From Amphiscolops sp. MND2022 (lineage: Eukaryota): a DNA stretch of 64,000 nt. A program made the translations under genes and the position numbers. Every line of letters starts with the position of its first letter. The stretch's first letter is position 1. The stretch is from NCBI GenBank assembly GCA_964187785.1, contig OZ076409.1, forward strand, positions 58,034,001 through 58,098,000, read 5' to 3'. The notes below the pieces were generated by a model, which was not told the origin of the DNA, made no database searches, and saw only the letters and a program-made list of their open reading frames with translations. Of the stretch, positions 4,015 to 50,000 are shown piece by piece.

Positions 4015-4027
4015 TTATACTTAATAA

Positions 4028-6272: not shown

Positions 6273-6284
6273 TTATTAAAAAAA

Positions 6285-7803: not shown

Positions 7804-7826
7804 TTATTTATAAAAAATTGTTATAA

Positions 7827-8743: not shown

Positions 8744-8801
8744 TTTTCTACGTAGTTTTGCAGAGCTTTCGCGGAGCTTTCGCAATAAATTTTGATTATA
8801 A

Positions 8802-10048: not shown

Positions 10049-10199
10049 TAGGAATGATGAATTATAATGTGATACCTAACGTAATGTTATAATAATATAC
10101 CAGATGATGATAATAAATGATGATAATAAGTGATGATAATAAATGATGATAATAAATGATGATGTAAATGATAATAAAAGATGATAATAAAAGATATTT

Positions 10200-14062: not shown

Positions 14063-14159
14063 TTATTTATAATAAATTTATGAATTTAATAGCAGTATAT
14101 TTTTCAATTATTAGTGTTAATTTTTATTTTATTTTTCATGTTAAAATTGAAGAAATTAA

Positions 14160-15612: not shown

Positions 15613-15691
15613 TTATTAAGTCGAAAAAGTTTAAAAATACAAAACTCATAGACATGCCCACTTGAAAATTTTTGTTGGTTGGCCCGAATCG

Positions 15692-15917
15692 AAAAACCAT
15701 TGTTTTGTGATAACTGGCGTAAACTGCTTAAAATCAATGGTTTTGGCGTAGCTTCGCGGACTTTTAATTTTTGGGGATTTGCAGGGCTTCGCGGTGGCCC
15801 GAATCAAAAAACCACTGATTTTAATGATATGTTTTCTAAAAGTACTTAAAATCAATGGTTTTGAGGACTTTTTATTTTGGGGTTTTTGTGGCCCGTCTCG
15901 GGATTTCCCATACTACT
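15692..15917 (-). repeat. Polinton right terminal inverted repeat (~226 bp)
   Basis: Reverse complement of 1509-1735; ends ACTACT. Confidence 0.95.
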
Positions 15918-20604: not shown

Positions 20605-21387
20605 TCAATGATAGCTCAGAAACTCCAGAGCATGTTTCGTAATTCCAACAGCCAGAGCTCCGACATATAATACGAACATGACTCGGTCTATCAACTGCGA
20701 CAGCAACTTCCAACATTTGTATTCCTTCTCGGTCTGACATGTTTCTTCCTTGCACAAAGAGGATCCATCGTTCGATTTTTCCATTTGCTTCTCTGTTGGG
20801 TTGTCATGAACGTTATGATTAGATATTCCACCCTTTTGGCGTACATCATGTCGTTCATTCCTGCAGTTAGTCCTAGCGTTCGGGTTGCGCTGTTCTTCGG
20901 CATCCGTTTCCGGTCTCTCAGCCGGGACTTCCCATCCTCTTCTAGTCTCATGGACCGATCCGGCCATCATGGCATTTTGAATTTGAGGCAACACTTGACT
21001 ATTTATAGCCTCATTGATGGCCCTTTGGATCTGTGAACTAACATTATTAAGCATATCGTCCATCTCTCTCGAGATCCTAGAATTTAATTCGCTTGACAAC
21101 CTGTTTATCTCTGCAAGTGAGTTTGCTTCAGCTGAGTTTTGGCCCAAGTCGGCGCTTGTCCTGGGTTCATTGTTCCTACAATTAGAATATAGGCTTTCGT
21201 CCTCATTCTCTTGATTGTCGCTTGCAACACTATTCCTCCTCCTAGCTGAATTACTATCTAAACTCCTTTCTCTTTCAATCCCGTTAAAGTGATTGTTTCC
21301 TAGCATTATATCTAGGTTTTCAATATCCGAAAGGATCTCTAATCCTCTAGACTTTCTAGTCTTCTTCTGCTTTCTCGTTGTAGGCAT
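20605..21387 (-). other. Chimeric ORF: LTR-borne Gag N-terminus (195 aa) fused in frame to the host channel C-terminus with M4
   Basis: First 195 aa match Gag. Junction CAT GAC A|AC CCA reads HD-NPTEKQ...IDRVMFVLYVGALAVGITKH. Confidence 0.7.
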
Positions 21388-22727
21388 TGAGACTAAACCG
21401 GGTTGAAGAATTATATTAATCAGGACCGGAAAACAGTAATTGTTAACAGATTGTTATCAAGTTGATTGTGAGGAGCTTTTCGAAAATTGTGTCTACTCAA
21501 AGGAAGTAGCTCCTATATATACTCCCTTGGGTGGGAAAAGCATGGTAGTAACTTTAAAAAATGTCATAACTACATTCCTAAAGCACCTGATCAGATCATA
21601 TACGTTCAAACATCAAAGTGCCGCTGAATTGTAGTAGCAAGGTCACGCGGCCGTTTAAATTCCTGCTTTGATGGGATTGAGAGGCATTCAAATAGCACGC
21701 GTTACTTCAAACAACATCTACTATAATATTTGCACTGCTGGTATTTGGGGAATGTCAGCTATCCCGTGCCGGCACGTGCCCCAGTAGTAAGCTAAACAAA
21801 CTTACATCAAATAACGTTACATGCATAATACATCTACAAATTGCATGTGTTAATTGACAAATGAGACCGGACTGGTCTTTCGGGCAAGTATTTGAAGCAC
21901 CAACACACAACTGGTGTTAATCATATCAACCGATCTGGAGGACTACATAACTGTTTGTAACACACTCATTACTGTACATGTCATTTAGAATGCACAAAAC
22001 AATCATATTGACCATCTGAGTAATAAATTGAATGGGTGGCCTAAATCGGCCATTATCCGGATAGGTATAGCATCAGGGGAGGGAAATTAGGCAAATGGCC
22101 TTATTCGGCTAAGCATCAGGGGAAATGAAACAAAACACTAATTATCCAACGTGATCATTTAACAAACACAGAAACGTAATTAAGCTACTCATTAATACAG
22201 TATAGCAGCGTCCACATCATTATCTTTTCGTTAGCAACTTATGGCCGAAACCGGCCGTTTGACTCAAGTTCCGTTTAACAAAGGCGGAATTCAGTTATGT
22301 GGCCTTAACCGGCCATTAATTAAATACAGCACAAGTATTGTTCAAATGGATGAATGTGATTGGTTAGCACGACTGCAGTAAGTTATATCGCCGAGAAGGG
22401 ACGTTTTCGCACTTGAACACGTTTCCTTCTCGCGATTAACTTGCTCTCTTATTGTTTGCTATAGCATCAATACAACTTCGCAATTTAATTCAGCTATTAC
22501 AACAACGAACTGATTTGGCTAATCCCAAATCGTAATATTAACAGACTAATTTGAACATCCAATATAAGTGATCAAATAAAATAAATACAAACAAAATACA
22601 TGATGTAAACGGTTTCTAAAGTTTTAGCAGTTTTATTCTTAAAAAGTTGGCAGTGTTCCGGGTATGACTTCTTGGTTGTTGCTTGTTGTCGTAATCATAG
22701 TGCCGTCACAGGCGGCAGCCTGCGACA
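20802..22727 (-). repeat. 3' LTR (1926 bp)
   Basis: Direct repeat of 35295-37220. Minus strand TGTCGC...ATGACA. Confidence 0.97.
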
Positions 22728-23424
22728 CTGCGGGTGTAAGGAAAAGAAACGAACCTGCATTCAACCCGTTTTCGTAGGCTTCCCTTCTCAGCTTTGTTAT
22801 GAATTCTGGCTCATCTCTCGGTGTAGATCTGTCCATGTACCAATCCACTCGCTGTTTCTTGATCGCATCTACTGAGCGGCCACAGACCATACATCCGGTA
22901 TAACGTGTTTCGCTCACATTCTCGTACGGCTTCGTGTTTTGAATGTGATATGACGCCCTGAATGCAGAGTCAGCTACTACTAGCGGGGTATCCATAGACG
23001 GTCCTCTCTCGTGAGGGGGCGGTGATAGAGGTGACTCCACGACAGGAAGTAGAGTTTTGCAGAGCTCTATCCGAGATTTCCCTATCTTCCTCGGGGGAGC
23101 ATAACACATTTCTCTATCAAAATATTTGTGATCCAACTTCGGGGTCACGTCCATCTGCGTCTGCCTGGAACTTGGGCCAGCTTCTGTATCTTCTTCTTCT
23201 TCTTCGGGTAATTCTACAGTCATAATGCGGCCCCCTATTAGCATGGGGCTGGATATTACCTCTTTCTCGATCCTGGCCACCAGTTGTTCCGTATCAGTGG
23301 AATAGTCGGTTTCCCAATCCGAGGCTTCGCTCTCACTACTAGATATGTAGATGACAGATTCGTTAGATTCGTCAGAATCATAATCCATGTCGAATAATTT
23401 CCTTGCCAGGTTGTACTTGCTCAT
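22639..23424 (-). CDS. Accessory ORF (261 aa; acidic N-terminus, CxxC) ending inside the 3' LTR
   Basis: Intact ATG-initiated ORF. A homologous ORF crosses the LTR boundary of a divergent relic at 39294-39832. Confidence 0.75.
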   Translation of the reverse strand: MSKYNLARKLFDMDYDSDESNESVIYISSSESEASDWETDYSTDTEQLVARIEKEVISSPMLIGGRIMTVELPEEEEEDTEAGPSSRQTQMDVTPKLDHKYFDREMCYAPPRKIGKSRIELCKTLLPVVESPLSPPPHERGPSMDTPLVVADSAFRASYHIQNTKPYENVSETRYTGCMVCGRSVDAIKKQRVDWYMDRSTPRDEPEFITKLRREAYENGLNAGSFLFLTPAVSQAAACDGTMITTTSNNQEVIPGTLPTF

Positions 23425-24338
23425 AATGAGTTTTTTAGCTATTTTGAAGCTTGGGGAGGCAACTAGTCAGAATCAAAGTTTGAGAAAGAATGAATTCAAC
23501 AAATTTGAGAATTTAGCCGACTCGGGCCTTTTACCGACAATTCGTTTTTGGCGGTTGAATCTTCGGTAAATTACCCTAATCCGACATAAACATTCCTGAA
23601 TGGAATTTCATAATTAGTCGGCCACCTTTGATATACCGATGTTTACCCGTCATCAACACCATCAGCTTAAGAGGTGTGAACGACGCTTGAGCTGCTAGCC
23701 TCAATTCTCTCCATCTCAAGTGGGTAATTAACGGGTCGCTTGAAGGCTATTAACGACACGCGCCGTTAAATTCTTTCAACATGGCTTCAGCCAATCAGAG
23801 TTAAGCTCTGACAAAATGAAAAATTAAGTAATAAAATGGCGAAAATAATAAATCAAAATAATTCAAAATGGCGGAAATAACAATTTGAGTAACTATAATA
23901 ACGGAAGTCCTAATTAGGCTAACAAACAAAACGGAACGAGGTAATACAGTGAAATGGGGTAAACGGCCGTAATTGGCCAATAATTCCATGAGTTGTAAAT
24001 AATGAAATGATCTTAGTACATTTCGCTGGCAGACTCCATGTACAGAATAAATATGTAAATAATCCCATAATATTAGTCTGGTAATAATCTTCAGCCACGA
24101 ACTCCAATCCTTCAATTCTTTATTTTGAATTCCAATTCAATTCCTTTTATTTTAATTGCACTTTCTCTTCCATATTCATTCGATCGGTCTCCATCTACAA
24201 ACTACCCTTTCTGTCTCTAATCTCTCCCGTCAGTCATCTCTTCCGACTATCCCTGTTTCTCCCTTTAAGCCGGGTCCGGCCAATTTCCTTCGCGGCAGCA
24301 ACCCGATTGGAACACTTCCCTTTTAGTCTCAGCTCAGA

Positions 24339-27300
24339 ATGTCTTCAACTGAAGGTTGGTTTGTTTCTTTTTGAACTCAAATTTAACTTGATCAGGGCTA
24401 AATTCGTTCACAAAATGCTTCCTGTTTTCATCAATAAACGTGTGATAACACGTTTCGTTCAAATTTTCAAACACTTCCGGAAGTTTTCTAATGCGGTAAA
24501 ATGGATTTTTTCCAAGGAAGCTCACCGCCAAATTTCATCTCATTCTGTTTAGAAAACCAGAATAATGACGAATCACAGATTCGAAACACCACTTCTTCAA
24601 ACAATCTTGCCGAGGTTCCTCAACGCCCGCTCCCGATTACCATGCCAAGGCCTAGATCCGATCTAATTGCTCCGTCTTCTCTATCTTCATCCAACATCCT
24701 TGCTATGCCAACAGCAGCGGTAACAGGAGGAGCCCAAGATACAGCTACTCCCTCTCCTTTCAGTGTCGACAGTGATTTTGATGTCACGGCGTACGCTGAT
24801 GAGAAAGTTTTGCTTCTCGAACGGGCCCAGGAACAGGAAGAGAGACAAATTGCCAAGAGTTCTGAACTCGGGGAACAGGAGGTTGAAGAGAGTGTCCCAG
24901 AGGGTTCACTTACGGTTGGGAACGAAATCCGATCTTCTACCTTGCCCTTCCAAACAAGCACTCCAACCAAGGATTTGCCCAGTGAGTCTGCAAGGCTGAA
25001 TTTATCGCAACTAGAAGCCGGTCTCACAGTTGCTCCATCTACCCAGACGGAATTGCCAGAATTGTTGACAACTCGCGGAAATACTACCAACATGTCAGCA
25101 GCATCATTCCTCCACCATGAGACTGACGAAAGTTCGTCTATATGTGATGCCCCCAAATTGCCGACTGGAGTCGCGGACATAGTATATTTAGACGACATAA
25201 CAGGGACTGAGGAAGCTGGTGACACATCCAGTCAGGCAAGTGGACCAGCTCTATACAGTTTCCAACCAGTGGGAGGCGCAGCAGAAACTGCAGGGGAGTC
25301 ATCAGTTGACACTCCTATTCCTCATCCGGATAACTTGCGTCCGTCAACATCAACGTCTGCAGAGCAAGGTTCTGGCATCAGGGAGCTCTCTGGTCGCAGC
25401 CGGGCTATTTTAAAACAATACTTCGATCAGGATGCTACTACCATCAACTTCCCCCTCGGCCATAGAACGGTGGCTTTCACTGAGCCACAAGTGTACCATC
25501 TTTTGAGGGTCCTTACAGATGAAACCTTGAAGATGTCTTTCACTGCCATGGAACAGATGGTGATCGGGGCAGTTCGTGGAGCGCCGGTTACTTCCAGTTC
25601 TCGAACTGGTCATTTCCGAAACAGGCCAAGAGCCCAAACTCCCGGACCTGGACTTCATAGTGATTCCGAGGGCAGTTCGCATTCTGAAAATTTCCCTGAG
25701 TCAGGAACTGATACGTCTGCCGGGTCAAGTTCGGAACAAGAAGATAGAGGACTGGACTCTTCCAACAACACTGATAGCTCTGGGGAGATGGCTCTAATTT
25801 CACAGGCTTTTAAGGAGCCTTTCAGACCTGCTTCAACTTCCTGTGGGACTACTCAAGATGATCCCCCTCAAGCAGGTTTCGAATCAGCAGATCAGTCTAG
25901 TCTTGATGCTACCCTTTCCGAGTTACGAACTCAAACTTCTCCTGCTCCGCCCTTAGCTTCGAGTTCGGGTAAAGTGCCAAAACGTAAGCAACGGAAACAG
26001 ACTCGAGGTATCCCTATGAAAGAGGAGTTCTTCTCTAAAATCGGATGGACGCGCTCGTTCATTTCTGGACCAGCAGACCCGCTCCATAATCCTTATATGG
26101 TATGGTGCCATATATGCAAAAAGAATCTTTCTGTGAAGACGAAGGGCACTTTGGAAATTCTGCGGCACCACAGGACGGAGAAGCACCTCCGAAAAGATCA
26201 AAGATGGCGTTACGAGCACCTCAAGAGTGTTCACCCCGTGTCCGGAAAGGTGCAACATCGAGTGAGAGGCCGCAATGGGAAGATTCTCTCAGAGATTGAG
26301 TTGGCTAAGGAGATGCGCCACTTTATGCACGTTGAGTTGGTGGACATCGGAGAACGTTTCCCTTTCTATGACGATTTCATAAAAGGAACAACCACCACAC
26401 TCGTCACCCCTGAATCAAGAGCTAAGACACAGATCCAACTTATTGGGAACTTCATACAGCAGCACGGGGATATTGGAATGCTCCGCAAATTGTGGTCCCA
26501 AATAGGCTCTTTGACTAACTACCAGTCCAGCTACTGTGACTTCGATTGGGGTGAAGAAAGAATTTCGGTAAGTTCTCTATTGGGTTTGTACACTGCTTGT
26601 GGTAGGCCAAAACCTTCCAAACATTTCGTAATTCTCCTTTTCCTTTTCAGGCCATCTTCCAGCACATCTTCAATTGTGCAATGAACGATTTAGCAAACCA
26701 GATTGCTACCACACAGCACTTTGCCATCGAATTTGAGGATCAGGGTGTGAACAGACTCATGTCTGTCAAATTCTGGAAAGACAACACCCTCTGCCGAGTC
26801 TACGTGTGTCGAAGTGGGCTTCCTTCCTCTGACCTTACTGGAGAGTTGGGGTCCCTCTCTCGACTCCTCTCAGTAGTATCCACTAAAGCCGATATAGTCG
26901 CCTGTTCCGGATGTCCTGTCGAGCTGATTCAGACTATCGACAACAATGTTTTCTTCCCCCGGGCTGTCCAGAGTTGCTTTCGCTTCGAGCATCTGCAGCT
27001 CCAGAAGATGATGCACAAGCCCACTTTCAGTGTGTTTGGCAGAATAGACTTCTTCTCTGTTCTGAAGTGCCTCGTAGTTTCACTTGGAGCAGCTTCCAGT
27101 GAGGATTGGGCCCTGCAATCCCCTGAACTGGCACGAGTTAGTATATTAAGTTCAAACATGAAGCGTAAAGGGTTAGGGGGTAGGTTCGGACAAAAGACAA
27201 TTCGGGTTCGTTTAGGCTATCGATACCTGCAAACTGGACTTGCCGAGTTTACCCAACCTCTGTCGGGAACTTGTAAAACATTGGAAGGCGATCCGGCAGT

Positions 27301-28745
27301 ACCTGACGTCCCATACTCCACACCAGGGAATGCAGGGGGTCCACAATCAAGTGCAGAGCTTCGAGTGGTCTCTCATCTGCGACTCCTTCTTCATCGTCAA
27401 GTTGGAGTTCTTTCAACGCATAATCAGTGATTGTGAGTATACCGCTACATATCCATATTGGTACTATAAGACATTATCAGAATGATCCTTGATCCTTGAT
27501 TCCTCGGGCCACTAGCGCAGTAGGCATATCGGTATGGGTTTATGTAGACGTTTTGTTCTTTTCATGGTCTTGTCCTTTGTATTTCCAGATGTCGCCAGTT
27601 TCGTTGCCAATCTGTTGGGCCGACGAGATGCAACATTTTTCCTCTGTGGAGAAGTCTGCCGATTCATCTCCAAGTTATGTGCCAGATGTTACTTGCCGGA
27701 AACCATCCCTCTCGAGAATTCGTGGTTCCTGCTCCTCAATTTCAACGTGAGCGACGGGAAGTTCATCAGCGAGGAGGAGTTCCTTGTCCGACACCGGCTG
27801 ACAACTCGGATAGCTACTGCCAGCAAACAGTGTGCCGATGTTGTCCATTTGAACAAGAAATCGGAGAAAGCCGCCATTGAGAAGACAGCTGCAGAGACAA
27901 CCAGCAGTTTCGTCAAAGAAGGACTGCAGTTTATTCAGTACTTGGTCAAGCAGGTCCTCAACCAAGCCGGTCTGAGCTCCGAGGTGATCAAGGGGTTGGC
28001 CGCCTTTGATCCTTTCGTCCTCTTCAAGAGGCCGAGTGAGGTCGGACTTCGTCATTTCGAGGTATTGTACTCGACCTTCCAGCTTCGCTCCTGGGTCTCC
28101 GGTGAGAATGAGAACATCTGTCGAGATGAGTATTTGGCTTTGTTAGATCACCTGCGAGTCAATTATCCTCCAGATTTCGATTTCAATGAAAATTCCCCCG
28201 ACCTGATAGACTTTCTGATGCAACTCGAGTTTTTTCAAACTCATGAGCACATTTTCCATCTTTTCAAGCTGTGCTGCTTGTGTTTGACAGAACGAAGTCT
28301 CCAATATCCCCCAGTATCTTTCGGGAGTGTTAACACTTCTGGACACCGAGGCCGTTTTGCTGACCTTATAGAGCCCTGTCAGAGTTACCTTTCTTGCGTG
28401 CCTGACTCCATTCTACATTGTTGTTCTGACGCTAATTTAGAAAAGCTTTCAGCCCTCAGTTCTTCCTTCGAGCGTTCCGCTTTCTCCCCCGACTATGATC
28501 CATGGACCTTTGTGGATGAGTTCGGGAGGTCCAAAATTTACAAGAGCCTTCTTGCCTCCTATAAGGTCGTCACTGCTGTTTCTCCCCCTCGGGCTGTTCA
28601 TCTGGAGACAGGAATTGCCTCCTCCGTGCCGGACGATTCTGCCATAAAGGTGCCCTCCAAGAAGCAAAGGAAGCGAGCAGGTAGCAGCAGTTCTACAATT
28701 TCGTCCACTTCCAAGAAGGCTGTTCAAGGGTCCTCTAAAGACTAA
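24339..28745 (+). CDS. Antisense spliced cargo gene of the retrotransposon: BED-like zinc finger plus degenerate hAT-like transposase fold (~1296 aa)
   Basis: Exons 24339-24354, 24553-26567, 26651-27136, 27216-27432 and 27589-28745 total 3891 nt. All four introns are GT-AG with matching phases (1,0,0,1). Zinc finger WCHIC...RHHRTEKH. An alternative unspliced start exists at 24501. Confidence 0.8.
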
Positions 28746-28977
28746 ATGTACATATGTATTTATGTACTTTCAGACTGTAAACTTTGTTCATTTCTCTGTT
28801 TCATATTTATTTTCATTTTGTTCTCTGTTGTCTTGATTTTCTGATCCCGTATTTATTTCCTTGTAAGGGATCATTCAAATGTCCCATTATTTATTCAAGA
28901 AATACTGCTGCATGGGACCGAAAAGATAAAAAGAATGAAAAGAAGAGAATTCCCATTTTCGGGAAGAAATTCAATTC

Positions 28978-31900
28978 TTAGTATCTGAAGTCTTCTGAGT
29001 AGTTTGGATTTGGATTAGGCCTGAGATTATATTTCCCTCCTCTAGGGCTCAGACTTTCATTTCTAGCATCTTTTTCAGATATTTCGGGCACGATAATATC
29101 ATCCCCTCTTTTCGGAGAATTTTGTGCATCGTTGTCATTCGATGAATTTCTTTCTGGAGAATTTTCATTCCCGTTTGGTCCATTTGCCATATCCGGCGAA
29201 GATTTTTCTTGGGTTTTTGGGGAAACGGCCGGATTCGGCCAATCAAATTCTTCGTTTCTAATAGCTCCAGTAGCTTCATTTCTTTTAGTGACGTCATCAT
29301 TTAAGCGGACATTCCGGCTGTGTGCCGTATTGTCATTATTCGTTTCTCGCGTGATTATATAATCCGCGTCACTCTCGTTTGCGTCATTGTTGATTTGTTC
29401 CGTACTCGGCTGTTCGCCGTTCGGTGAGCTGGCCGGAATAGGCTCGCTGCCTCGTGTGTCTAGCTGTTCGCCAAAGTTTGTTTCCCACGTTATTACATAC
29501 AAGTCGTCTTGCGGAATGATTATTTCGTCATCCGGCTGTAGACGCTGTTCTCGGAAATTGTCCTCAAGTGGCTGATTTGGAACAAACTTTTTGAGACGAA
29601 TTCGATGCAATATCTGCGTTTTATTTGTATTAAGCCTGCGGACAATGTAATTCTCGTTAGGTAAGGTCTTCTGGACTATAAATGGTCCAACCCAACGATA
29701 ATCTTTGAATGGAATTTTTGATCCTTGATGATCCGCTTTCGGCTGTAATACAAAACAGTAATCGCCCTCTTTGAGTGGGGCGGCTTTTGCTTTTCGGTCA
29801 TAATACTCCTTATATTTGATATATGACTGCATGATGTTCTGCTTAGTTTTGTCAATAAGGAGTTTTGTCCGGTTTTGGATTTCTTCTGCGAATTCAGTAG
29901 TCGGATGGATTTGCTCGTTTGGATTTGTTCCAAGCTTGTGATCCAAGATGTTGTATGGGATTCTTCCATGGAACACTCTTGTCGGTTCACATCCGATACT
30001 GGCATGGTAACTAGTATTGTGATTCAGAACTGCTAATGGCAAATATTTGTGCCATTGTCGGCGATATTCTCCACATGCCATTTTCAAGTTTGTTTTCAAT
30101 GAGGCATGTGTGCGCTCCAATTTCCCGATAGTTTGCGGGTGCTTTGTCGTTGCACATTTTAGGGTAATTCCTAAAATTTGGGTAATTTCTGCAATAATCG
30201 TGGAAGTGAAGGCAGTTCCTTTGTCTGTAATGAGCGTTGTCGGTAAGTAGGAATGTTTGGTCATAATGTCAATGAGTGCTTTGGCTACATTGATCGCTGA
30301 TGCGTCCGTGAGAGGGTAAGCGAATAAATATCTAGAGAAAACATCAATTGCCGTTAGGACATTTTCATACCCTCCGCTTGGGGGAAGATTCGGCAATAGG
30401 TCAATTTGCATGGCGTCTTCAGGTCCAAGGTCCCATTCGGGCAAATTTAGTAGTTCAGGCGTGATCGTTGCATTAGGGACTCTTTTGTCTCTGGCGCATT
30501 GCTCACACCCTTCTACCCACTTTTTGACATGTTTTGCCATGTTGGGATAATAATACCTTTGTCTGATTTCCTGCAACATTTTTGAAATCCCGGGATGTTT
30601 ATGCGCTGTCCCGTGAAGGGAGTGGAGCAGTTCCCGAAGTAGGTGTTGCGGGAGCAAAATTTGATGGTATTTAACATTCCCTGTTTCATCAAAATATTGC
30701 CGTGTTAGGATTTCGTCCTTTAGTACAATTCGTTCCAGATTATTTGCATAGTGTCTATATCGAGCGTCCTGTTGCAGTATGTTTTCTGAGTAGTCTTCGT
30801 GAAGGAGTTTTGCCTTCAATTGTTGTAATACTGCATCCTTGGATTGCTCGATAATTATCTGGTTTGTTTTCCTCAATCGGTCTTGTATTTCAGGTTGTTG
30901 TTTGGTTAAGTTGGTGGAAAGAGTTTGTATTGTAACTGTAGGGTCTTCGATTACAGGATTGTTCCTGATTGCTTCTTTCCTCGCCCAATATTGTTCTTCG
31001 GTCTCGTCGTCGTCATTGGTGTAGAAGATTTGTTCTTCCTGTGAGACTCCTGCTGATTGGACGTTTATTTCTATTGGTAGCGTTTGTACATCTTCTCGGA
31101 TTTTCATTACTAATTTGTCCTTTGGGTCTGCTTCCAGTCGGGACAAGTAATCCGCTGCCGTATTCTGTGCTCCTGGGATGTGTGCAATGACAAAATTGAA
31201 CTGAATTACATAGTCGCATGCGTTCCACAGAGCTGGGGGTACGATTTTCGTCTGAAAGAATCTCGTTACGGCTTTGTTGTCGGTTAGAATTATGACCGGT
31301 TTCGGTGCTCCCCAAAAAATATGCCCAAATTCTTTGAATGCAAAATAAATCGCAAGAAATTCTTTTGCATAAATTGACATTTTTATCTGGGCTGGGGTGA
31401 AGGTTTTTGAACCATAAGCGACCGGTGCATATGATTTGCGGATTGACGTGAATTTCTGACTCGGATCATCTTCAATGAGTACTGCGTATCCTGCAGCTCC
31501 AAAACTTGCATCTGTCATGAGTGCAATCTGCTTGTTGGGAATGGGTTGTTGTAAGGCTAAGTCGCAACATTTGTCCAGAGCTCGGTTGATTTCCTCAAAT
31601 TGCTGTACCAATTCTTTTGATACTAGGACTTTTTCGTCACTTTTCAGCATCTTGTAGAATGGGGCAAGGCGTTCGGACAGTCTTGGAACGTAGTTTCGGT
31701 AGTAGTTCAGGAAACCCAAATATCTTTGCAATGCCTTTTTCGACTTTGGAAATTTGGTTTTTTCTAGAAAATTCTGAACGTTCTGTCGTTGAGGTTTGAC
31801 GCCTTGTGGAGTAATCGTTCGTCCAAGGAAATCAATTTCACGGGCACCAAAATGACATTTGTGCATCGTCAATTTAAGGCCTGCTTCCTGAATGCATTTG

Positions 31901-34180
31901 AAAGTTGCTCTTAGGTTAGCAATGAGATGGTCGGCGTCGTTGGCGGCGATGCCGATATCGTCCACATACTGGGCGCACTGATCCGCTTTGATGACTTTGT
32001 CGAGGTATTCCCTCATGAAACTCGAGAATGCGGATAGTGACCGGCTAAGGCCTTGTGCCAAGCGTCTGTAGGCGAATGTGCGACTGGCAAAATTGAAAGC
32101 CAACATTTCGATTGAGCGTTGGTCGGCCATTGGTAGGCAGTGGTATGCCTGCGAACAGTCTAATTTGCAGAACAGTTTTTTGCCTGCCAGGTGTTGGGCA
32201 GCATCAACTAGTGTGCTGACAGGATGATTATTGTTTATATAATCATCAGAAATCAGGTTGTTGATTTTTCTCAGGTCGACTAAAAGTCGCAGTTTCCCAT
32301 TTGGTTTCTTTTGGGCGAATATTGGGCTTGCATACTTTGAGAACGGTAGAGTGGTGATGATGCCATATTTGTGTAACATGGCTAATTCGACGAGGATGTC
32401 CTCCTTTAGATTGATAGGAGCTGGGAGACTTTGACTATAGGCTGGGGAATCGTCCTTAGGCGTCAGTTTCACCTTAAATTCCTCATTCATGCCTATATCG
32501 AATCGGTGTCTTGCGAAGATATCGTGGAATTCCACTAACAGTTCCTCTATTTTCTCCTTCTCTTCAGGAGTAAGGGTGGAATCTTTCCAATCGAAGTTTT
32601 CCAAGAATTTTGCACGTGATTCTTCATCTTTGGTGGGGTCGAGTGTCTCCAGTTCCTGTAAGGCCTGTAATTCTCGGAGGATTCGTTTCTGTATCGGTGT
32701 GTGTTCCTCAGGGTTTCCAGGATTTTCTGGAGTTGGGAACCAATAGTTTTCAGAATCTTGTAGATTTTTGTTGGTCTTGATGAGACTGCTGACGTAATGG
32801 GCCGCCTGCTCTTGGTCGTTTTGCAAAAGATGCCAGGTTGATGCCGGGTCTACCGGTTTAACATGTTTCATTTGTTCTGGCGTCATGACTGAGAAATTGG
32901 CAATATGGAGTCCCTTTTTGAGTTTGTAAGGGTGGTCTGTGAAATTGTTCACTGGTATCAATATATTGCCCTCATTCAGAGTGACCAAAGCTGGGCAAAA
33001 TGTGATGTCGCCTTCTTCGTGTAGGAGGTCGCTCGGTTGCAAGATCCCGGTGACAGCATTCTCAGGGTACAACAGGGAATTGGTCCTAATTAGGACTTTA
33101 TCATTTGGCGGAATGGTTTGAGGTAGGGTTGAGAATTGGTTCTAACACGTTTGAGTATTTATGATCAGCTGTTTTGAGCTGCATTGAGAAGAACGGGAAA
33201 TTCAGTATGCCTTGTCTCATGTCCAGAACTGTGTGGTTTCGTTGAAGGAACATTAGGCCGATAATCGGACCTGTCAGGTGTTCCATGACTATAAAAATCT
33301 CATGAAACTCAATGTCGCCAACTTCAAATTTAAGTTCTATTGTGCTTTTGGGCGTTTCCAGTTGCCCATTAGCGACCATGATTTGGAAATTCGGAGGCGG
33401 ACCTTCCCGGATAACAGATTGTGGAGATAAGAGTCGAATTTTCCGGAGGTCCATTTCTGGAATTGCACTGGACAATGCTCCAGTGTCAATGAGTCCATCT
33501 ATGGTCAGCTCCCCAAAGTCCATGGGGAAGTACAACATGCGCTTCTTGCATTTGAGATTGATGTTGGTCGACAAGGGTATACAGTCTGGTTCACCGTCTC
33601 TGGTGATTAGGACGTTCTGGAATTGCTTCTCGTCTAATAGTGATTGTGGTGTAGGTTCGGAGTTGTCCTCATGGGCCTCGGTCCCCAATGGGTTCGGGAA
33701 CACTGGGTGGTTAGTACCATCATTCATCTGCCAGTTTTCAACTAGTGCTCTGGTCTTTTTATTGTGGGTAATTGGAGGGTTCTCATGGACTGTTCTATTG
33801 TAGTGCTCGATGTCATCTAGGACATATTGGAATTGTAGTAGTTCCTGGTTGTAGATCTCTGTGTCCCAATAGGGATCTCTGCCGTAATCTGGATCTATGT
33901 AGGTAGGATTGTAATTGTCAACCAGGGGAATGGGCCTGAATCGGCTATTGAAAGCAGATGTATAGTCAGGGTCCCATACAGGAATTGGTTTTTGGAACAA
34001 ATGAGTGTTATTGTATGTAATGATGGTAGCTTTTTCCATTTGTTGCTGCCAGACAACAGAGGGATAGCCCATCAATTGTTGATTGTATTGGTGGAAAGTT
34101 TGCGTTGGAGGGTCCGATCTGATGTATTGTCGGACAGATATCAGTTCGTTGTATTGGAGTCGTGGCGAAGTTAGTTTTTT
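28978..34180 (-). CDS. pol: Pol polyprotein (protease, dUTPase-like spacer, RT, RNase H, integrase) with one frameshift near 33120
   Basis: LIDTGA, KLDCSQAY, YVDD, TDASF, TDNKA, HHCC (H...HKH...CEQC), QIDL/TDKG/LER triad, WVGPF. ORFs 33101-34075 and 28978-33072 are in different frames. Confidence 0.93.
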
Positions 34181-35880
34181 GACTCATCGTTGGAAGATGA
34201 GGCCTGTGAGTTGGAAGATGTTGACTTGTGTTGTGGTTTCTGCGCTTTTGAATTGGGTTTTCCGTCATTAGCGTCGTCTGGTCTGGTGCGTTTGGGTTTG
34301 AGATGCGCACCAGCGCCTTGCCAGCATCTTTCTTCCGGGTGGTTCTTTTTACCACAAGTGCCACACTCCGGATACGTCTTTTTCTGAGTCTGTTTGCCTT
34401 GTTGGGCATCTTTTTCCTTTTTCTTCTTCAACTTTTCGCAGTCCTTGACCATATGGCCCTTTTCCTTGCAATAGTTGCAGGTTATATCTGACATTTGCCC
34501 AGTAGTTAGAGGAGTCTTGGATTTTGTCGAGGAGGTCATTGTGGCCATTGGTAGGTCGTCTGATTCCTCTAGTGCATTGAGTTCTAATTCTCTCTCCAAA
34601 TGAGCATCTATTTCGTCATAAGAGCCATTTTCGAGTCTAGCCATGTTGACAGACCGCTTCAGTTTTGGTGGCAGCTTTGCGTAGAGCAAGCTGTCAATCA
34701 TTTTCTGGGCGTGATCCCCAAATGCTTTTTCTGCCCCTTGATTTAGTTCTTCAAGGAAATCTGGTAATTTCATCGTATTGGGATCAAAGACCAGGCGGTG
34801 CCATTTATGCTTGGCAGTCGCCTGTGATTCGGGCTTGACGTATTTTCGTCTGAAGATGATTAATACGTCTTCTAAAGTTTGTCTGTTGCTGGAGCTGATG
34901 TTTCTGAAGGTTTGAAGAGCATTCTTTCTCAATAAAGAGTGGAAGTGATTGATCTTCATTTGCTCAGTCATCTCTGGCTGCATCTTGATCATCGTATGGA
35001 ACAGGTCCTCAAACAGCTCGAATTTTTCACTCTTGCCATCAAAAGTCATTGTGTTTGAGTTGACCGGGCGTATAGTGAGTTGTTGGGCTGTCGGCCTATT
35101 CTGCATCGTTGTCAAGACGTCTGCCAATCGAGTAATAGGGTCGGTTTGGGCAGCCGGAGCATTTCTCTCTTGCGCTGGGATCGTCGTGTCAAGGTTGATG
35201 TCCTCATAGGACCTGTCGAGATGGTTTCTGGATGAGACTCGTCCCGTGAGAAACTCGGGAACTTGAGGTGGAGATTCGTTGTCTCCTGTCACCATGTCAT
35301 GAACGTTATGATTAGATATTCCACCCTTTTGGCGTACATCATGTCGTTCATTCCTGCAGTTAGTCCTAGCGTTCGGGTTGCGCTGTTCTTCGGCATCCGT
35401 TTCCGGTCTCTCAGCCGGGACTTCCCATCCTCTTCTAGTCTCATGGACCGATCCGGCCATCATGGCATTTTGAATTTGAGGCAACACTTGACTATTTATA
35501 GCCTCATTGATGGCCCTTTGGATCTGTGAACTAACATTATTAAGCATATCGTCCATCTCTCTCGAGATCCTAGAATTTAATTCGCTTGACAACCTGTTTA
35601 TCTCTGCAAGTGAGTTTGCTTCAGCTGAGTTTTGGCCCAAGTCGGCGCTTGTCCTGGGTTCATTGTTCCTACAATTAGAATATAGGCTTTCGTCCTCATT
35701 CTCTTGATTGTCGCTTGCAACACTATTCCTCCTCCTAGCTGAATTACTATCTAAACTCCTTTCTCTTTCAATCCCGTTAAAGTGATTGTTTCCTAGCATT
35801 ATATCTAGGTTTTCAATATCCGAAAGGATCTCTAATCCTCTAGACTTTCTAGTCTTCTTCTGCTTTCTCGTTGTAGGCAT
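34171..35880 (-). CDS. gag: Gag polyprotein (569 aa)
   Basis: TFDGKSEKFELFEDLF capsid-like region and two CCHC knuckles (CNYCKEKGHMVKDC, CGTCGKKNHPEERC). Confidence 0.92.
   Translation of the reverse strand: MPTTRKQKKTRKSRGLEILSDIENLDIMLGNNHFNGIERERSLDSNSARRRNSVASDNQENEDESLYSNCRNNEPRTSADLGQNSAEANSLAEINRLSSELNSRISREMDDMLNNVSSQIQRAINEAINSQVLPQIQNAMMAGSVHETRRGWEVPAERPETDAEEQRNPNARTNCRNERHDVRQKGGISNHNVHDMVTGDNESPPQVPEFLTGRVSSRNHLDRSYEDINLDTTIPAQERNAPAAQTDPITRLADVLTTMQNRPTAQQLTIRPVNSNTMTFDGKSEKFELFEDLFHTMIKMQPEMTEQMKINHFHSLLRKNALQTFRNISSSNRQTLEDVLIIFRRKYVKPESQATAKHKWHRLVFDPNTMKLPDFLEELNQGAEKAFGDHAQKMIDSLLYAKLPPKLKRSVNMARLENGSYDEIDAHLERELELNALEESDDLPMATMTSSTKSKTPLTTGQMSDITCNYCKEKGHMVKDCEKLKKKKEKDAQQGKQTQKKTYPECGTCGKKNHPEERCWQGAGAHLKPKRTRPDDANDGKPNSKAQKPQHKSTSSNSQASSSNDESKN
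34174..34180 (-). promoter_or_regulatory. -1 ribosomal frameshift slippery site A AAA AAC
   Basis: Heptamer sits immediately before the gag stop. The -1 frame is open (KLTSPRLQY...QQLMGY) into the protease ORF. Confidence 0.8.
35281..35294 (-). promoter_or_regulatory. Putative primer binding site
   Basis: TGGTGACAGGAGAC directly follows the 5' LTR terminal CA. The priming tRNA was not identified. Confidence 0.7.
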
Positions 35881-37220
35881 TGAGACTAAACCGGGTTGAA
35901 GAATTAAATTAATCAGGACCGGAAAACAGTAATTGTTAACAGATTGTTATCAAGTTGATTGTGAGGAGCTTTTCGAAAATTGTGTCTACTCAAAGGAAGT
36001 AGCTCCTATATATACTCCCTTGGGTGGGAAAAGCATGGTAGTAACTTTAAAAAATGTCATAACTACATTCCTAAAGCACCTGATCAGATCATATACGTTC
36101 AAACATCAAAGTGCCGCTGAATTGTAGTAGCAAGGTCACGCGGCCGTTTAAATTCCAGCTTCGATGGGATTGAGAGGCATTCAAATAGCACGCGTTACTT
36201 CAAACAACATCTACTATAATATTTGCACTGCTGGTATTTGGGGAATGTCAGCTATCCCGTGCCGGCACGTGCCCCAGTAGTAAGCTAAACAAACTTACAT
36301 CAAATAACGTTACATGCATAATACATCTACAAATTGCATGTGTTAATTGACAAATGAGACCGGACTGGTCTTTCGGGCAAGTATTTGAAGCACCAACACA
36401 CAACTGGTGTTAATCATATCAACCGATCTGGAGGACTACATAACTGTTTGTAACACACTCATTACTGTACATGTCATTTAGAATGCACAAAACAATCATA
36501 TTGACCATCTGAGTAATAAATTGAATGGGTGGCCTAAATCGGCCATTATCCGGATAGGTATAGCATCAGGGGAGGGAAATTAGGCAAATGGCCTTATTCG
36601 GCTAAGCATCAGGGGAAATGAAACAAAACACTAATTATCCAACGTGATCATTTAACAAACACAGAAACGTAATTAAGCTACTCATTAATACAGTATAGCA
36701 GCGTCCACATCATTATCTTTTCGTTAGCAACTTATGGCCGAAACCGGCCGTTTGACTCAAGTTCCGTTTAACAAAGGCGGAATTCAGTTATGTGGCCTTA
36801 ACCGGCCATTAATTAAATACAGCACAAGTATTGTTCAAATGGATGAATGTGATTGGTTAGCACGACTGCAGTAAGTTATATCGCCGAGAAGGGACGTTTT
36901 CGCACTTGAACACGTTTCCTTCTCGCGATTAACTTGCTCTCTTATTGTTTGCTATAGCATCAATACAACTTCGCAATTTAATTCAGCTATTACAACAACG
37001 AACTGATTTGGCTAATCCCAAATCGTAATATTAACAGACTAATTTGAACATCCAATATAAGTGATCAAATAAAATAAATACAAACAAAATACATGATGTA
37101 AACGGTTTCTAAAGTTTTAGCAGTTTTATTCTTAAAAAGTTGGCAGTGTTCCGGGTATGACTTCTTGGTTGTTGCTTGTTGTCGTAATCATAGTGCCGTC
37201 ACAGGCGGCAGCCTGCGACA
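35295..37220 (-). repeat. 5' LTR (1926 bp)
   Basis: Direct repeat of 20802-22727; only three substitutions seen by eye. Followed on the minus strand by TGG. Confidence 0.97.
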
Positions 37221-38078
37221 TGGGTCATTCAAATCTTTTTCGTTGTCTGTATTGTTTCCGGGAACTTCCGTCACCTCAACTTTCGAAAGATTGTTCAGTC
37301 TTGGGAGGCCGAAAATAGGCATCAGAAACGAGTTTAGAATGGTCCTAGTAATCGGATGGGGTATGACTCCACAAGGGGTGAGGTAAACCCTAGTTGAGAC
37401 AACCGCAACTACAACAGAGATGGAAATCAGAACGATTGAGAATAGAATGAACTCGCCCACGATGGGGAAATTTTCTGACGAAGGTGGAAGAATGTCTGCA
37501 ATTACTATCAATTCGACTGTCTGAGAGAGAAGAACTGTTATTCCCAGGGAGACTCTCTCGCCACTTTCGACTGGAAGCAGAAAGCAAAGAATGGAAAGCA
37601 GAGTCATAGTCGTCGTAGGTAGTATGATCACATTCACATAAAACGTAGGGTGTCGTCGGAAACGGAAACGGTACAAAATTTTATCGTACCTCAAAGACCC
37701 AGCTGAAGTTCGAGCTCCGTGAAAGTTTCGATAACTGGTGGAGATTGAAACGGGCTGCAGGAGTTGCCACTGACCGGCAGGCTGGAAGTACTCCAGATTC
37801 AATCGATCGGAAAGGCTATTTATGCTGTCTATTGTTAGTCGGTAGCTACCATTAGTTGACCCCCATTGCCCAGCTCCGAATAAACACTCCTGTGCAAAAA
37901 GTAACAGATCTCAAGTAAATGAAGGAAACTCAATGTATTTGTAAAGAAGGGTGTCATTTGACAGCTAAAAAAACTAAAACTTGCTCCAAAGACATAAGTA
38001 ATGGATAATGATGAAAGACTAGTTAAAATTGAGCATAAACTCCTGTTGAATTATTGAGCTTTGCGATTGTAAAACGCT

Positions 38079-44005: not shown

Positions 44006-46212
44006 GTGGGGGATTAGAATAGTAACGTAGAGTTGCGCACAACCATGAATCTTATTATATGACATCATATTGCCCATTGAATAGTGTATATGGCCTAAAA
44101 TATACATAAAAGATAACAGTAAGGTTTTATTTTCATCATGCTAGCATGACCAGCGTTGACGTAGACTTGGTTGCGATGTGACTATTTGTGAGGTTAGTTT
44201 TCATCTGTATAACAATATCACACCTGCAACTATGGGACAATTGTTATCAAAATCTTGAACAACAGCTGCAGAAAGGGCAGTCGTGTAGGAACTTTTTCCT
44301 AGAATAGAGTGTTTTGAGTAATTGCTACGAAGAGACATTTCTCATCTACTTTCAATCCATTATTCAAAAAAACAAAGAATACTAGCAGGATTAAGAATTG
44401 TTTCGCCTTTGTTTGCCCATTGTAATGAAGAGTACCCTAGCTGAGACTGCTAGAACTTTTTAAATCTGCAGGCCTGCATGCAGTATAATTTTTTTTATAA
44501 AACCTAAGGATTTCAGTGAGGTTCCTGTAGTAAATTTTGCAAAGTTACACACCTTCTCTATTGTTGCACTTAAATTTGAAAATATTTCTCCTTTCTTTAT
44601 GGACAAACTCACGATTTCTCCACAATTCATCTGATTTAATCGCCGGTTGCCAAATAGGACGCTGAAGATGACGCTAGTTTGATGTTTAAATTGCGAATGA
44701 TGGTAACTTGCAATGAAATGGCAGCGAAATTGTTGATGTCTCAGCTGCATTTAAAACTAGAACTGATGCATAATGAAAAACTCGCGAAAACGTTGATGAT
44801 TCGTCCAAGCAGGTTGATAAAAGATGATGACAACTGGGAAACACTAACGAAATAAAGTTCCTGTAAGAGATTTAGAAAAACATTAAAAAAGTTGCTGGCA
44901 ACTTTGAAGGACATAGAAAAAATTCAAGCATGTCCAACAAGGGTACTAGCGTGATAATTTCAGACGGTTCTCTGTTTCTGAGTAACGGGAAGAAACACAC
45001 TACCACCTGATATTCGTACTATCAACTTGGATCTCAGCAGCAAAAATTGAAAACTGATTGCAATTGACAAGCAAGGCACAAAAAATTGAATTCTGGTACA
45101 TTTTTGAATATCAAGCACTTTGTGCAGAAACGTTGAGATTTGTGCATAGTTCCTCATGCTACGAATAGAATCTACGTTTTTCTTTAGTTTTCCTTTTTGT
45201 TAGTTCTGTAGAACGAGCCTTTGTTTAAGTAAAACTTTAAACTTAATATGTTTCGTAGTTTTTGAACTATTTGTTTTTCTTTTATATTTCACTTTTGGCA
45301 ACATTTGCAAAAGCGCCAACTATGAAACATGGGAAAGAATTCATCAGTATAGATCAAGAGAAATAACTGAAAATCATGAAAGCTCACCTGAGAGTCGAAT
45401 GGGAACAGCCGGACATTGAAGTTGCAACTCAGTTTAATGTTCACGATGGAGCTTTCAGCCGCAACTAATCCATTGGGATAGATTTGCTGCTTATCAAAAA
45501 TGTGGTAGACAACATCCGCTGTGTCGTAAAACACCACATCTGGGGTCCACACAGATCCGGCCGGTAGCATAACATTGGTGACACCATTCTTAGCAGGATC
45601 CCACGCCAAGTCAAGCAAATAGTAGGTTAGAAAAACCCACAGTCTCAGACTCACGATAGCCTGCCTCTCATCTACCTCGAGGATCTGATACAAATCCACG
45701 AAAAGAAAAACCGTGTTGTTGAGCATGTTACTATGACGAACATATTTTGTGGTTTTGCTCAGCAGATCAGTTATAAAGGAGTCTTCTAGCGACGAATTTT
45801 GGAACCCGTTGCACGGCCTGTCGATACAAGTTTGGAACACTTTTGTTCGTATTCGAATTTGAAGTCTTAAGGCTTGTTTTTCGAACGCAGTATCAAACAA
45901 CCTGTATGAAAAAACCGGTTAACTTTACTGAATTTTCACAAACTCTAGAGTTATAAGTCAATTGTTGATTGTCTTTACCTAGATGAAATTTTGGGTTTTC
46001 TGTGAAATTTGCAAGACAGCGTTTTTGTCTGACATCACTGCTCTAGCATTTTCTAGCACGGGTGAATGCTCTATATGATCATTGAAAAAAGTAAAATCTC
46101 CGTCGATTTTGCTTCGCTTTGTTTGATTTTAACTTGCTTATCTGATTTTTTAGGACTCGATCGAGGTCACGTTCTCGTCGTGAGTTCTGTCACGTGTGTT
46201 ATATAAATCCAC

Positions 46213-47022: not shown

Positions 47023-50000
47023 GGTTATTGTTATTAGCCCACTGAAAGAACCTTTTTGGTAAAAGTGTTCCAAAATTGAAACTTATTCACCAAGGTGACA
47101 ATGCAATGACGACAAAAAGAAAAGTCCAAGAAACCATTGAGTTCAATTTGTACATTTTTGCTTCTCAATGGAAACCTTGTAATGGCAGGTGAAACATCAG
47201 TAGGTAGTGGTTTCTTCTTAGCATAAAGCTAATAGATTTAGGAAATTAAACTTTGTTGATATTTTTGACGAGAACTGTGACTGAACAAAAGCAAACAAAA
47301 CAGTAAATTATTTTCAAACAACATCTTGCTGCGAATATTTGTCGCTGATGCAAGTTTAACAGTATGAAATAATGGATGCTCCAAAACTTCCAGTGAAAGA
47401 TTTATTGGCTTGGTGAAAAGATGTGTAAATTTTTAAACCTTCATTATGCGTTGAGACGTCTGAAGTTAAGTTTCGATTGAAATGTTTCAAAAAGAAATAT
47501 ACTTTCATTTGTTGCTAATGAAGCACGAGACTTAAAGTAAAGAGGTTTTCTCAGATGTTTATTGGTGCCATGGGAAGTAATTTTTTGTCTTAAGAATATC
47601 ATTAAATTTCATTGAAAATTTGAATTCATTATTTGTTGCATCTATCTGATCGAAGCACCTGAGACAAATTTACATGTCTGTTTGATTACGAAATTTGTAC
47701 AAAAAAAATGCTTGAAACGGTCAATATTTGGAACTTTTTGAATTTTGGGGAGGCATTTTCAGATTTTGTGAACTAACTATTTCAAATTTCTAATCTGAAA
47801 AGCACTCTGTGTTCATTTCAACGCCTGAAGACGCCTGCCATGCCAACATGATAGAAATATGGCTCTATTATTATATATAATGTACGTTTTTTGTCGTATT
47901 TACTTATCTATGGGCGATATTAAGTCATATAATAAAATTCATGGTTGTGCGCAAATCTACGTTAATATTCTACTCCCCTACCTTGAGTTTGAGCTATGTA
48001 TTATTTTTTATGAGCCTCCTGAATCACTACTGTGCATATATGTTTGAAATACTGGTCAAAACCCAAGCAAAAACAAATCACAAAACAGAGGAAAACGTAA
48101 CACTGAATTCAAGTTCACCGATGATAAAAGCATGAAAGGTGTGAGACTCCGGCTAGTTGAGTCTCACAACGAACTGTCGTGTCTTAAATATCACCTCATT
48201 ACGTAACCATCGCACAGAGCGATTTGTTTAGACAGAGCTATGATATACGACATGGAAGTGATGAATAATCCCCGTCAATTATATTTCACTGATGTGCTGA
48301 AATACCAACGATGTAAATGAGATGCGAATTTCCCATCGTTTCTGCATCTCTACAGCAGTACAAGCCAATTTGAAATGTGACGATGAAGAAACGATGGAAC
48401 TTCAGTACTCTTTCCCTCGAAGCTACGTTCTACAAAGAATCCATCAATTTCTAATCACCGTTGCTTCCATTCTCAAATAATGAAACTCATTCATCGTTTT
48501 CGAATCTACTAGCATAGAAACATGAAGACACAACAGAAACAGGTGCAAAACGGTGCAAAATGATGATTTTCATTTCCCCCTCCTAAATAGCTGTCTAGCT
48601 GCAGCAAAATCATCGCTTTTACATCTAACATTCTGATTCGCTGCTAGTTAAATTCCCAAACACTTCGATTTCAACGGTTTCAATTCCTATAATTTTTACT
48701 GCATGGTCATGATTCAATGATGATAATTATTCAAAGTAAAATAGTCTCATTATATTGTCATGTAAATTATTTCAAATTTTGCTTGGCGCGCATTTATGAT
48801 TGGTAGTTTCTCAACACCATCGACAGCAACTGGTCACGTGACCGAGTATCAATTAGCACGTTAGTCCAACCCACGAGAGCACTCGGATGGTAAGAAATGA
48901 GGCTTACCACCTACCGCGCCGGTCTACCAACCAACTATCATTAATCCAATTTGTGTACTGACTACAATACGCTTTTACGACATATTGATTTCTGCATTTG
49001 TAATTCATCTTTACCTTCAACTTATCAATACAATTCTTATCCAACTAAACTTTCTTTCCTACATTACATGAGCCATCTCTCTCCTAGACGACTTAGAAAC
49101 GGAAAACTATTTAATGAAGAAAATTCTAATCATACTGACGCCTTTTCCCACATAAATCTAAACGGTAACATGGGAGACGCGAATAGTAACACGAACGGTT
49201 GATATAGAGACCCACCATGAAAACGAAGAACGTTTTAATAGACTTCAAACCCAAATGTCTACCTTAAAGCAATGATGGAGAAATTATTAGAACATAATGG
49301 CGAGAAAGTTAGGCAAGTTGACGCCGTCTCAATGACATCTTCGTTTGTCGTACAGGCGTCCAACAAACGTTCTAAATCTGAACAAAAAGACGCGACATAA
49401 TGGCCAAATTTGGAAAACTTTCTTTTGTTGAGGGTTATTTTTTGAGCATTTTTGTCCGTAAACTCCAAATTCTTGTTCGTAAAAAAGTGCCCGATGATTA
49501 CTTCGTCTTTTAAATTTTTAATTAAATCTCTCAAAATTTCGGAATAGGGTACGAAAGTAGACGAAGTGTTTGAAAACGGAAATTGAATTTTATTGTTTTT
49601 TGGGCATTTTGAGGTTTTTTTAAAAAAAATAAAACGTCAAATTACGTAAGAGCGTACAGAATGGCTAGCTGGTCCTTTCCAGATTTTTATGGATGATGTG
49701 TATTTTATCGAAACTTCCGGAAACTGTACCAAAATTGTCTAATGGAGTGTAAATGTAGTCTAAAAGAGTGGAATTCTCTTCAAAAAGAATTTCGATTAGT
49801 TTTTAGTTCCCCTTAGATGCTCTTCGATTTTCTAACCCCACAAAGTAGGCAAAAGCTTTACAAAAATTCATAAAAACTTAATCAGGAAAAACTTTTGAAA
49901 TGTAATTTGTGTTTTTCAGGTTTGTAAATGTATTTTTATGTAATTTGGGGGTCTGTTTGGGGTCAACAAAAAATCCAAAAAACTGTACAAGGACATATTT

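Follow-up and report, generated by a model that had tools for sequence, protein, structure and literature searches.

A Ty3/gypsy insertion severs M4 from a nicotinic-type receptor subunit and places it in frame with Gag

The locus described here raises the question of whether a retrotransposon that lands in the coding sequence of a Cys-loop receptor subunit simply disables the gene or divides it into two complementary halves. We analyzed a window of 64,000 nucleotides (Amphiscolops sp. MND2022, contig OZ076409.1, positions 58,034,001 to 58,098,000), whose numbering is used throughout. A preliminary description had proposed that the insertion creates a natural split channel, consisting of a subunit without M4 and a separate fusion of Gag to M4 driven by a long terminal repeat (LTR). 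The anatomy of this proposal holds, with no loop residue lost between the two halves; its functional part is unsupported, and the fusion is the default product of the LTR family involved.

The receptor gene and its interruption

The host gene was modeled as three exons, the last of which now lies in two parts.

47091..47137, minus strand: candidate receptor exon 1, with the ATG and a hydrophobic signal-peptide core; donor GTGAAT, phase 2
45388..45817, minus strand: receptor exon 2, the bulk of the ligand-binding domain, to the Cys-loop FPFDSQ; GT/AG ends
37221..37889, minus strand: receptor exon 3, 5' part, from the second Cys-loop cysteine through loops B/C and M1-M3 into the M3-M4 loop
20605..20796, minus strand: receptor exon 3, 3' part, with 35 loop residues, M4 (IDR motif from 20691), the C-terminus and the stop

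Exon 1 was placed by a scan for signal-like open reading frames (ORFs); its phase suits the acceptor at 45817, and the resulting N-terminus aligns with that of the full-length paralog P0182, which also led us to prefer acceptor 45817 to 45901 for exon 2. The pre-insertion model is 445 aa long and has four hydrophobic peaks, with three in the 5' part of exon 3. The preliminary description had assigned the ligand-binding domain and M1-M3 to the upstream half; this content is correct, but the ligand-binding domain is divided between separate exons, 45817-45388 and the beginning of the one that opens at 37889.

By its sequence relationships, the host gene is a nicotinic-type (nAChR-like) Cys-loop subunit and not a glycine-type one. 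Pfam matches were obtained for exon 2 (PF02931, E 5.9e-21) and exon 3 (PF02932, E 9.4e-19). Among the solved relatives of both large exons nAChR subunits rank on top (E 1.3e-21 for exon 3), and the top 60 PDB sequences matched by either exon belong to nAChR-type, acetylcholine-binding-protein or 5-HT3A entries; glycine receptors are absent from these 60. The modeled protein contains a C-x13-C Cys-loop with FPFD (C147-C161, spanning the exon 2/3 junction), and the G-E-K/R pattern is found at the M1-M2 linker (ESGERV at 267). The subunit is thus placed in the cation (nAChR/5-HT3) branch, its ion selectivity being a prediction. The vicinal cysteines of loop C, the mark of alpha-type nAChR subunits, are absent: there is no CC anywhere in the 445-aa model. 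In the present allele the four transmembrane helices are no longer in one chain, M4 being severed.

Compared with 17 relatives, chosen by eye from the top matches with P0053, P0054, P0055 and lower matches left out, the model departs from the family at 4 of 54 well-conserved columns (range in the family, 0-11). Because the departures are so few, the gene gives no general sign of earlier decay. The preliminary description had allowed that the gene might already have been a pseudogene, and the model speaks against this, as no other stop or frameshift interrupts its 445 codons.

The severed tail is a true M4 segment, judged by its paralogs: 12 of the 17 have C-termini that align with it, and it keeps W411 and Y426, positions that are aromatic in all 12. 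Since Pfam gives no match for the 64-aa tail alone, the identification of M4 rests on this alignment. D419-R420 is retained as well. Two M4 residues, K436 and H437 (20630-20640, minus strand), stand where 9 and 11 of the 12 paralogs, respectively, have an aromatic residue.

Several paralogous ORFs (P0049, P0051, P0052, P0053, P0055, P0181 and P0189) end before, or lack, a normal M4, owing to an intron or a break. No receptor match in the protein collection exceeded 63% identity. Because that collection contains none of the 11 start variants tried for the receptor ORFs in the window itself, its blank on an intact (empty) allele carries no weight; a DNA search for the intact allele returned two metagenome loci, both unrelated. 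Old repeat remnants about 70% identical to each other lie at 38153-39336, inside receptor intron 2, and at 50840-52105, and match neither the LTR nor the Gag of the element described below.

The interruption is a Ty3/gypsy element of 16,419 bp, inserted in sense orientation in the part of the last exon that encodes the M3-M4 loop.

37221..37225, minus strand: target-site duplication ACCCA, upstream copy
35295..37220, minus strand: 5' LTR, 1,926 bp, TG...CA
37188..37220, minus strand: LTR-derived tail of the truncated subunit (CRRLPPVTAL*)
37125..37130, minus strand: AATAAA, 57 nt past the new stop; T/GT-rich sequence comes next
20802..22727, minus strand: 3' LTR, 1,926 bp, TG...CA
20797..20801, minus strand: target-site duplication ACCCA, downstream copy

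The element runs on the minus strand from TG at 37220 to CA at 20802, and ACCCA flanks both ends. Its LTRs differ by 3 substitutions over 1,926 bp, which corresponds to 26,000-780,000 rate units at assumed rates of 3e-8 to 1e-9 per site, a range that shifts with the true rate; the insertion may therefore be 10^4 to 10^5 such units old, or older. Acoel-like animal genomes are described as LTR-rich (PMC9911081).

Upstream of the insertion, the host frame reads ...LNDP-CRRLPPVTAL*, exactly as previously claimed, with its stop (37190-37188) 10 codons into the 5' LTR. The modeled product is an M4-less protein of 392 aa. The AATAAA at 37125..37130, the sole one on the LTR sense strand, is the likely 3' end of the truncated mRNA; with this signal so soon after the new stop, a stable mRNA for the truncated subunit is plausible.

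A family of open Gag stubs

Downstream of the insertion, the 3' LTR runs into the severed receptor exon.

20605..21387, minus strand: fusion ORF of 260 aa, in which Gag 1-195 and the residue N precede the host loop, M4 and C-terminus
21513..21521, minus strand: TATA-like box TATATATAG in the 3' LTR, 134 nt upstream of the fusion ATG; putative promoter

The fusion ORF is present as first described. It consists of 195 residues identical to the Gag of the element, the junction residue N, and 64 host-frame residues that include one hydrophobic helix; in the protein collection it forms a single-member cluster. An LTR TATA box ahead of it had also been claimed, and a TATA-like box indeed begins at 21521, with no ATG between it and that of the fusion.

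The LTR codes at both ends, with 195 gag codons at its 3' end and 29 codons of a 261-aa ORF at its 5' end. It includes the gag ATG and ends, without a stop, one base into codon 196. Because gag starts inside the LTR and meets no stop there, every 3' or solo LTR of this family opens into its flank.

A search with the fusion protein supports this reading of the family. The Gag stub is matched by 803 protein clusters, and among the 119 non-self matches listed, 96 are stubs with unrelated tails, 17 continue as Gag and 6 are unclassified. Within these 96, the tails have a median length of 16.5 aa and reach at least 64 aa in four, a distribution that serves as a rough control only, since cluster representatives over-represent long tails. 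In 95 of the 96, the first tail residue is one that a codon beginning with the LTR's terminal A can encode. In the nearest cluster, six sister copies share one stub end, and each has a tail of its own, of 2, 4, 4, 12, 18 and 75 aa. These relatives lie on ENA contigs, not necessarily from one genome, and no copies of the element were found among viral contigs.

Open Gag stubs are thus a family-wide trait of the element. An in-frame fusion is expected in one of three insertions in sense orientation and one of six overall, and the present case is no excess over chance. A large and recently active family will give such an in-frame join by a 1-in-3 chance, and no selection is needed to explain it; the earlier caution that the fusion may be incidental is borne out. 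Related Gag stubs that continue into the DNA beside them number in the hundreds and are a source of chance host fusions.

Consequences of the insertion for the receptor

Alleles with an LTR inserted in an exon are already known, and the receptor allele is a further case, probably a null. In bovine APOB cholesterol deficiency (PMC9355974) and in the mouse ERV alleles Mip Cat-Fr and Dock7 m (PMC6466679), the stop and polyadenylation signal of an LTR truncate the host protein, as here, and the truncated protein sometimes ends in LTR-coded residues. Unlike in those alleles, the LTR studied here adds a start and 195 open gag codons, and the 3' LTR is in frame with the host C-terminus.

We consider it probable that the insertion allele has lost its function, one member of an expanded nicotinic-type receptor family having been knocked out when a Ty3/gypsy element present in many copies recently inserted in sense orientation. 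An active host promoter would yield an mRNA that ends in the 5' LTR and that would be expected to escape nonsense-mediated decay, because the stop lies in the last exon with AATAAA close behind. The 392-aa subunit would fail to assemble and would be held and degraded in the ER. The 3' LTR may be weak or silent, through interference from the 5' LTR or host silencing, or may be active in other cells, in which case the Gag-M4 ORF would give no useful M4. Paralogs or an intact allele could buffer the loss.

In published cases, receptor subunits truncated between M3 and M4 act as loss-of-function alleles in vivo. The mouse oscillator allele is null in vivo, with the protein absent, and glycine receptor (GlyR) truncations lose surface expression (PMC4891346). 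A natural nicotinic subunit in Plutella xylostella, nAChR alpha6, is likewise cut between TM3 and TM4; the allele is tolerated and confers recessive spinosad resistance, and its authors state that they are aware of no functional nAChR subunit without TM4 (PMC2792709). Unlike in the present allele, the cause is a splice-site point mutation, and there is no separate TM4 ORF (PMC2792709). In bovine APOB, the exonic LTR is accompanied by raised expression of upstream exons and lowered expression of downstream ones (PMC9355974), and transcription from an upstream LTR silences downstream LTRs (PMC11109974). The 5' LTR of the inserted element is intact.

Two points weigh against a null. Read-out from the 3' LTR into M4 is possible in principle, because transcripts started in the LTR must pass its end to make Gag; a break between protease and pol in the inserted copy (see below) carries no information on its promoters. 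The persistence of the insertion fits neutrality, but fits equally well a tolerance through some rescue. If the allele is a null, it is the ordinary outcome of an active retrotransposon burst and of minor importance.

The rival readings are all unlikely. The best placed among them has the M4-less subunit made and joining pentamers with intact paralog or wild-type subunits, where it would lower or shift their responses in a dominant-negative or modulatory manner, the Gag-M4 ORF playing no role. The last-exon stop and nearby AATAAA should allow its mRNA to evade nonsense-mediated decay; the GlyR E375X variant enters wild-type pentamers and alters amplitude and EC50 (PMC4891346), and non-alpha muscle nAChR subunits tolerate long C-terminal deletions (PMC9260303). 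However, the tolerated deletions lie mostly beyond M4, deletions in alpha subunits that reach into M4 lost expression (PMC9260303), and the absence of the oscillator protein in vivo (PMC4891346) also argues against such a role.

Somewhat less probable still is a leaky allele, in which cryptic host sites would splice the element out and yield a subunit of nearly full length whose loop lacks 34 residues.

20748..37274, minus strand: candidate splice pair, weak cryptic donor at 37274 (GAG/GTGACG) and acceptor AAG with its first exon base at 20748

Both sites are in phase 0, and the product would be open through M4. Such a pair arose in only 9-12 of 2,000 shuffles with thresholds set to the observed values, but these thresholds were picked post hoc, and the number rises to 213-621 of 2,000 at 7-8 pyrimidines of 14, as in the weakest modeled acceptors. 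The acceptor is AAG, against CAG or TAG in all six modeled introns, and there is no in-frame YAG acceptor. The 102-nt loop stretch that would be removed with the element is 41% A and 17% T, against 28-40% T in introns, and a 16.5-kb intron would have to skip both the AATAAA and a stronger acceptor-like site at 22728. Insertion of the element within a small native intron was considered separately and ruled out by base composition and the AAG acceptor.

Equally doubtful is the reading in which the receptor gene had already fallen silent, or come under relaxed selection, by the time of the insertion, which was then merely tolerated. It could account for the replacement of the family's aromatic pair by K436/H437, and for a 7.5-kb intron 2 holding repeat remnants. 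A normal M4 is also absent from 5 of the 17 aligned family ORFs and from P0053, and broken or intron-split members may be common. Against it stand the otherwise uninterrupted 445 codons, the canonical splice sites and the ordinary conservation elsewhere in the protein.

The split channel of the preliminary description is more improbable than any of these. In this scheme, the host promoter would yield the M4-less subunit, the 3' LTR would yield a tail-anchored Gag-M4 protein whose loop faces the cytosol, and the two would reassemble into working pentamers. Together, the halves cover the whole subunit, with zero loop residues lost; AATAAA follows the new stop, and a TATA-like box and an ATG precede the fusion. 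A hydrophilic N-terminal part followed by one C-terminal hydrophobic helix would give the fusion the topology that M4 needs, and W411, D419-R420 and Y426 are retained.

The precedent invoked for reassembly is the engineered complementation of GlyR alpha1, in which spd-ot-trc or R316X was combined with iD-TM4-C (Villmann 2009, Haeger 2010, Unterer 2012, via PMC4891346). The division is the same as here: the cut is in the M3-M4 loop, the N-terminal part carries M1-M3 and the C-terminal part carries loop and M4, and the M4 tail complements the receptor in vitro (PMC4891346). The earlier appeal to this rescue is sound for overexpressed protein; it does not carry over to the animal, since the matching mouse allele is null in vivo, nor directly to the present host, which is nAChR-like where the GlyR is of the anion type. 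Even in overexpression, R316X was restored to 20% of wild type, the long oscillator variant, with its longer N-terminal half, was not rescued, probably through steric hindrance, and the tail of another receptor gave no rescue either (PMC4891346). In contrast to that overexpressed anion channel with its small tag (PMC4891346), the present case, known from sequence, concerns a cation-type subunit, a 195-aa Gag extension and two unrelated promoters.

Further features of the locus count against a split channel. In-frame stub fusions are the default of the element family, and the M4 tail would drag 195 foreign Gag residues with it. This M4 has K436/H437 where its family has an aromatic pair, and in several receptors, though less in muscle nAChR, the packing of M4 against M1/M3 is driven by such aromatic contacts (PMC9260303, PMC8119899). 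A neuronal and a retrotransposon promoter, with unrelated tissue patterns, would both be needed in one cell. A limited look at the literature yielded no report of complementation of a nicotinic receptor, and a narrow search of open-access papers yielded none of a natural split Cys-loop receptor.

Should both halves nevertheless reassemble in the same neurons, which we regard as very improbable, this would be the first natural two-piece Cys-loop channel, and the LTR would be a gene-splitting cassette in one of three sense exonic insertions. The 3' end of such a cassette would supply a promoter, a start and 195 open codons, and the 5' end a stop and polyadenylation signal; the effect would extend to solo-LTR derivatives, giving two-protein alleles throughout a genome with hundreds of copies. 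Domain complementation, hitherto a laboratory result for glycine receptors, would then work in nature and in a cation-type channel, and retrotransposons could split membrane proteins without killing them. An assembly artefact, with a chimeric join through the LTR repeat, has a negligible probability: the locus is known from one contig, but the 5-bp duplication matches at both ends and the receptor frame is continuous over the site.

Coding content of the element and its surroundings

Beyond the probable loss of one receptor allele, the more durable lead is the element family itself, with gag in its LTR, no standard polypurine tract and a spliced antisense gene; it predicts many Gag-host fusion ORFs. 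Its features, apart from the LTRs, are as follows.

34171..35880, minus strand: gag, 569 aa, with the ATG and first 195 codons inside the 5' LTR
35277..35294, minus strand: primer-binding-site-like sequence, starting TGG right after the 5' LTR, inside the gag frame
33101..34072, minus strand: aspartyl-protease ORF, Pfam match below cut-off
28978..32886, minus strand: pol (RVT_1 1.5e-23, RT_RNaseH 1.5e-15, rve 1.8e-11)
24339..28745, plus strand: predicted antisense gene, exons 24339-24354, 24553-26567, 26651-27136, 27216-27432 and 27589-28745
22639..23424, minus strand: extra sense ORF, 261 aa, last 29 codons inside the 3' LTR; cluster of 105 members

The order gag, protease, RT, RNase H, integrase identifies the element as Ty3/gypsy. 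Gag matches DUF1759 and zf-CCHC in Pfam, both under the cut-off, and it ends at a slippery-type site, A-AAA-AAC, near 34175, where it overlaps the protease frame; this arrangement suggests frameshifting at the end of gag. The protease ORF is out of frame with pol near 33100-33130 (minus strand), and the inserted copy looks broken at this point, through either mutation or assembly error.

For the primer-binding-site-like sequence, the window contains no tRNA with which it could pair. The priming site at the 3' LTR is atypical, as a polypurine tract adjoining this LTR is absent: the 20 nt before it are pyrimidine-rich, and one has to go about 60 nt upstream to meet a run of purines. A pyrimidine tract ending in CAG (22728-22750, minus strand), which resembles a splice acceptor, stops precisely where the 3' LTR begins. 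The coding content still puts the element in Ty3/gypsy. The 261-aa extra ORF, for which Pfam gives no significant match, has an acidic N-terminus and a CxxC motif, and the AATAAA of the LTR directly follows it.

In yeast Ty1, a Ty1/copia element, the GAG start codon also lies within the LTR and the frame extends across the primer-binding site, with only a short gag stretch in the LTR. The present element is like Ty1 in having its gag start in the LTR and the primer-binding site in the gag frame; unlike Ty1, it has 195 gag codons in a 1.9-kb Ty3/gypsy LTR, and a further ORF overlaps the other LTR end. A narrow look at the open-access literature gave no report of a gag start inside a gypsy LTR.

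The predicted antisense gene, located between pol and the extra ORF, is probably the most unusual feature of the element. It has four GT-AG introns of 79-198 nt and encodes 1,296 aa without an internal stop. Its ORFs fall in clusters of 14 and 79 members. When the clusters of the element's ORFs are compared by the lengths of their longest contigs, two have 4 lengths in common and each other pair has 1 (among the 14-15 members listed for each), which suggests that the antisense gene travels with the element family. Antisense ORFs are known from other Ty3/gypsy elements: ORF4 of Retand, with a Transposase_28 domain, gene23 of Grande and the fungal brtn (PMC7264820). Those elements, like the present one, have their extra gene in antisense between pol and the 3' LTR (PMC7264820). 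Unlike the plant and fungal examples, the present one is in an animal element and is predicted to have 5 exons and 1,296 aa, with a weak hAT/BED likeness and not Transposase_28.

The likeness to hAT is a lead only. Atlas feature matches score 0.91-0.93 with 137-154 shared features, and in one of the matched Atlas clusters 60% of the members have a hAT dimerisation domain; zf-BED is matched at E 0.57 only. Exon 3 has no Atlas match, and the structure model of the exon-5 ORF has a pLDDT of 34.5. The gene is possibly hAT-derived. A nested hAT transposon was rejected, as none of 15 flanking 8-bp direct matches was accompanied by an inverted repeat of more than 3 bp. The antisense product has a long low-complexity N-terminus.

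Two further mobile elements were noted in the window. A Polinton/Maverick-type element occupies 1509-15917, with inverted ends from AGTAGT and a 6-bp duplication, AGGAGC; it encodes an integrase (rve), an A32-type ATPase and a double-jelly-roll protein, and its putative polymerase region is in several pieces. A second LTR element lies at 56907-63502 (plus strand), with LTRs of about 930 bp that are 97% identical and a 5-bp duplication, GGGTT. It carries a 1,193-aa Gag-type ORF (DUF1759), and no RT was found among its ORFs; we take it to be BEL/Pao-like. A 24-bp tandem array is located within it at 57952-58239.
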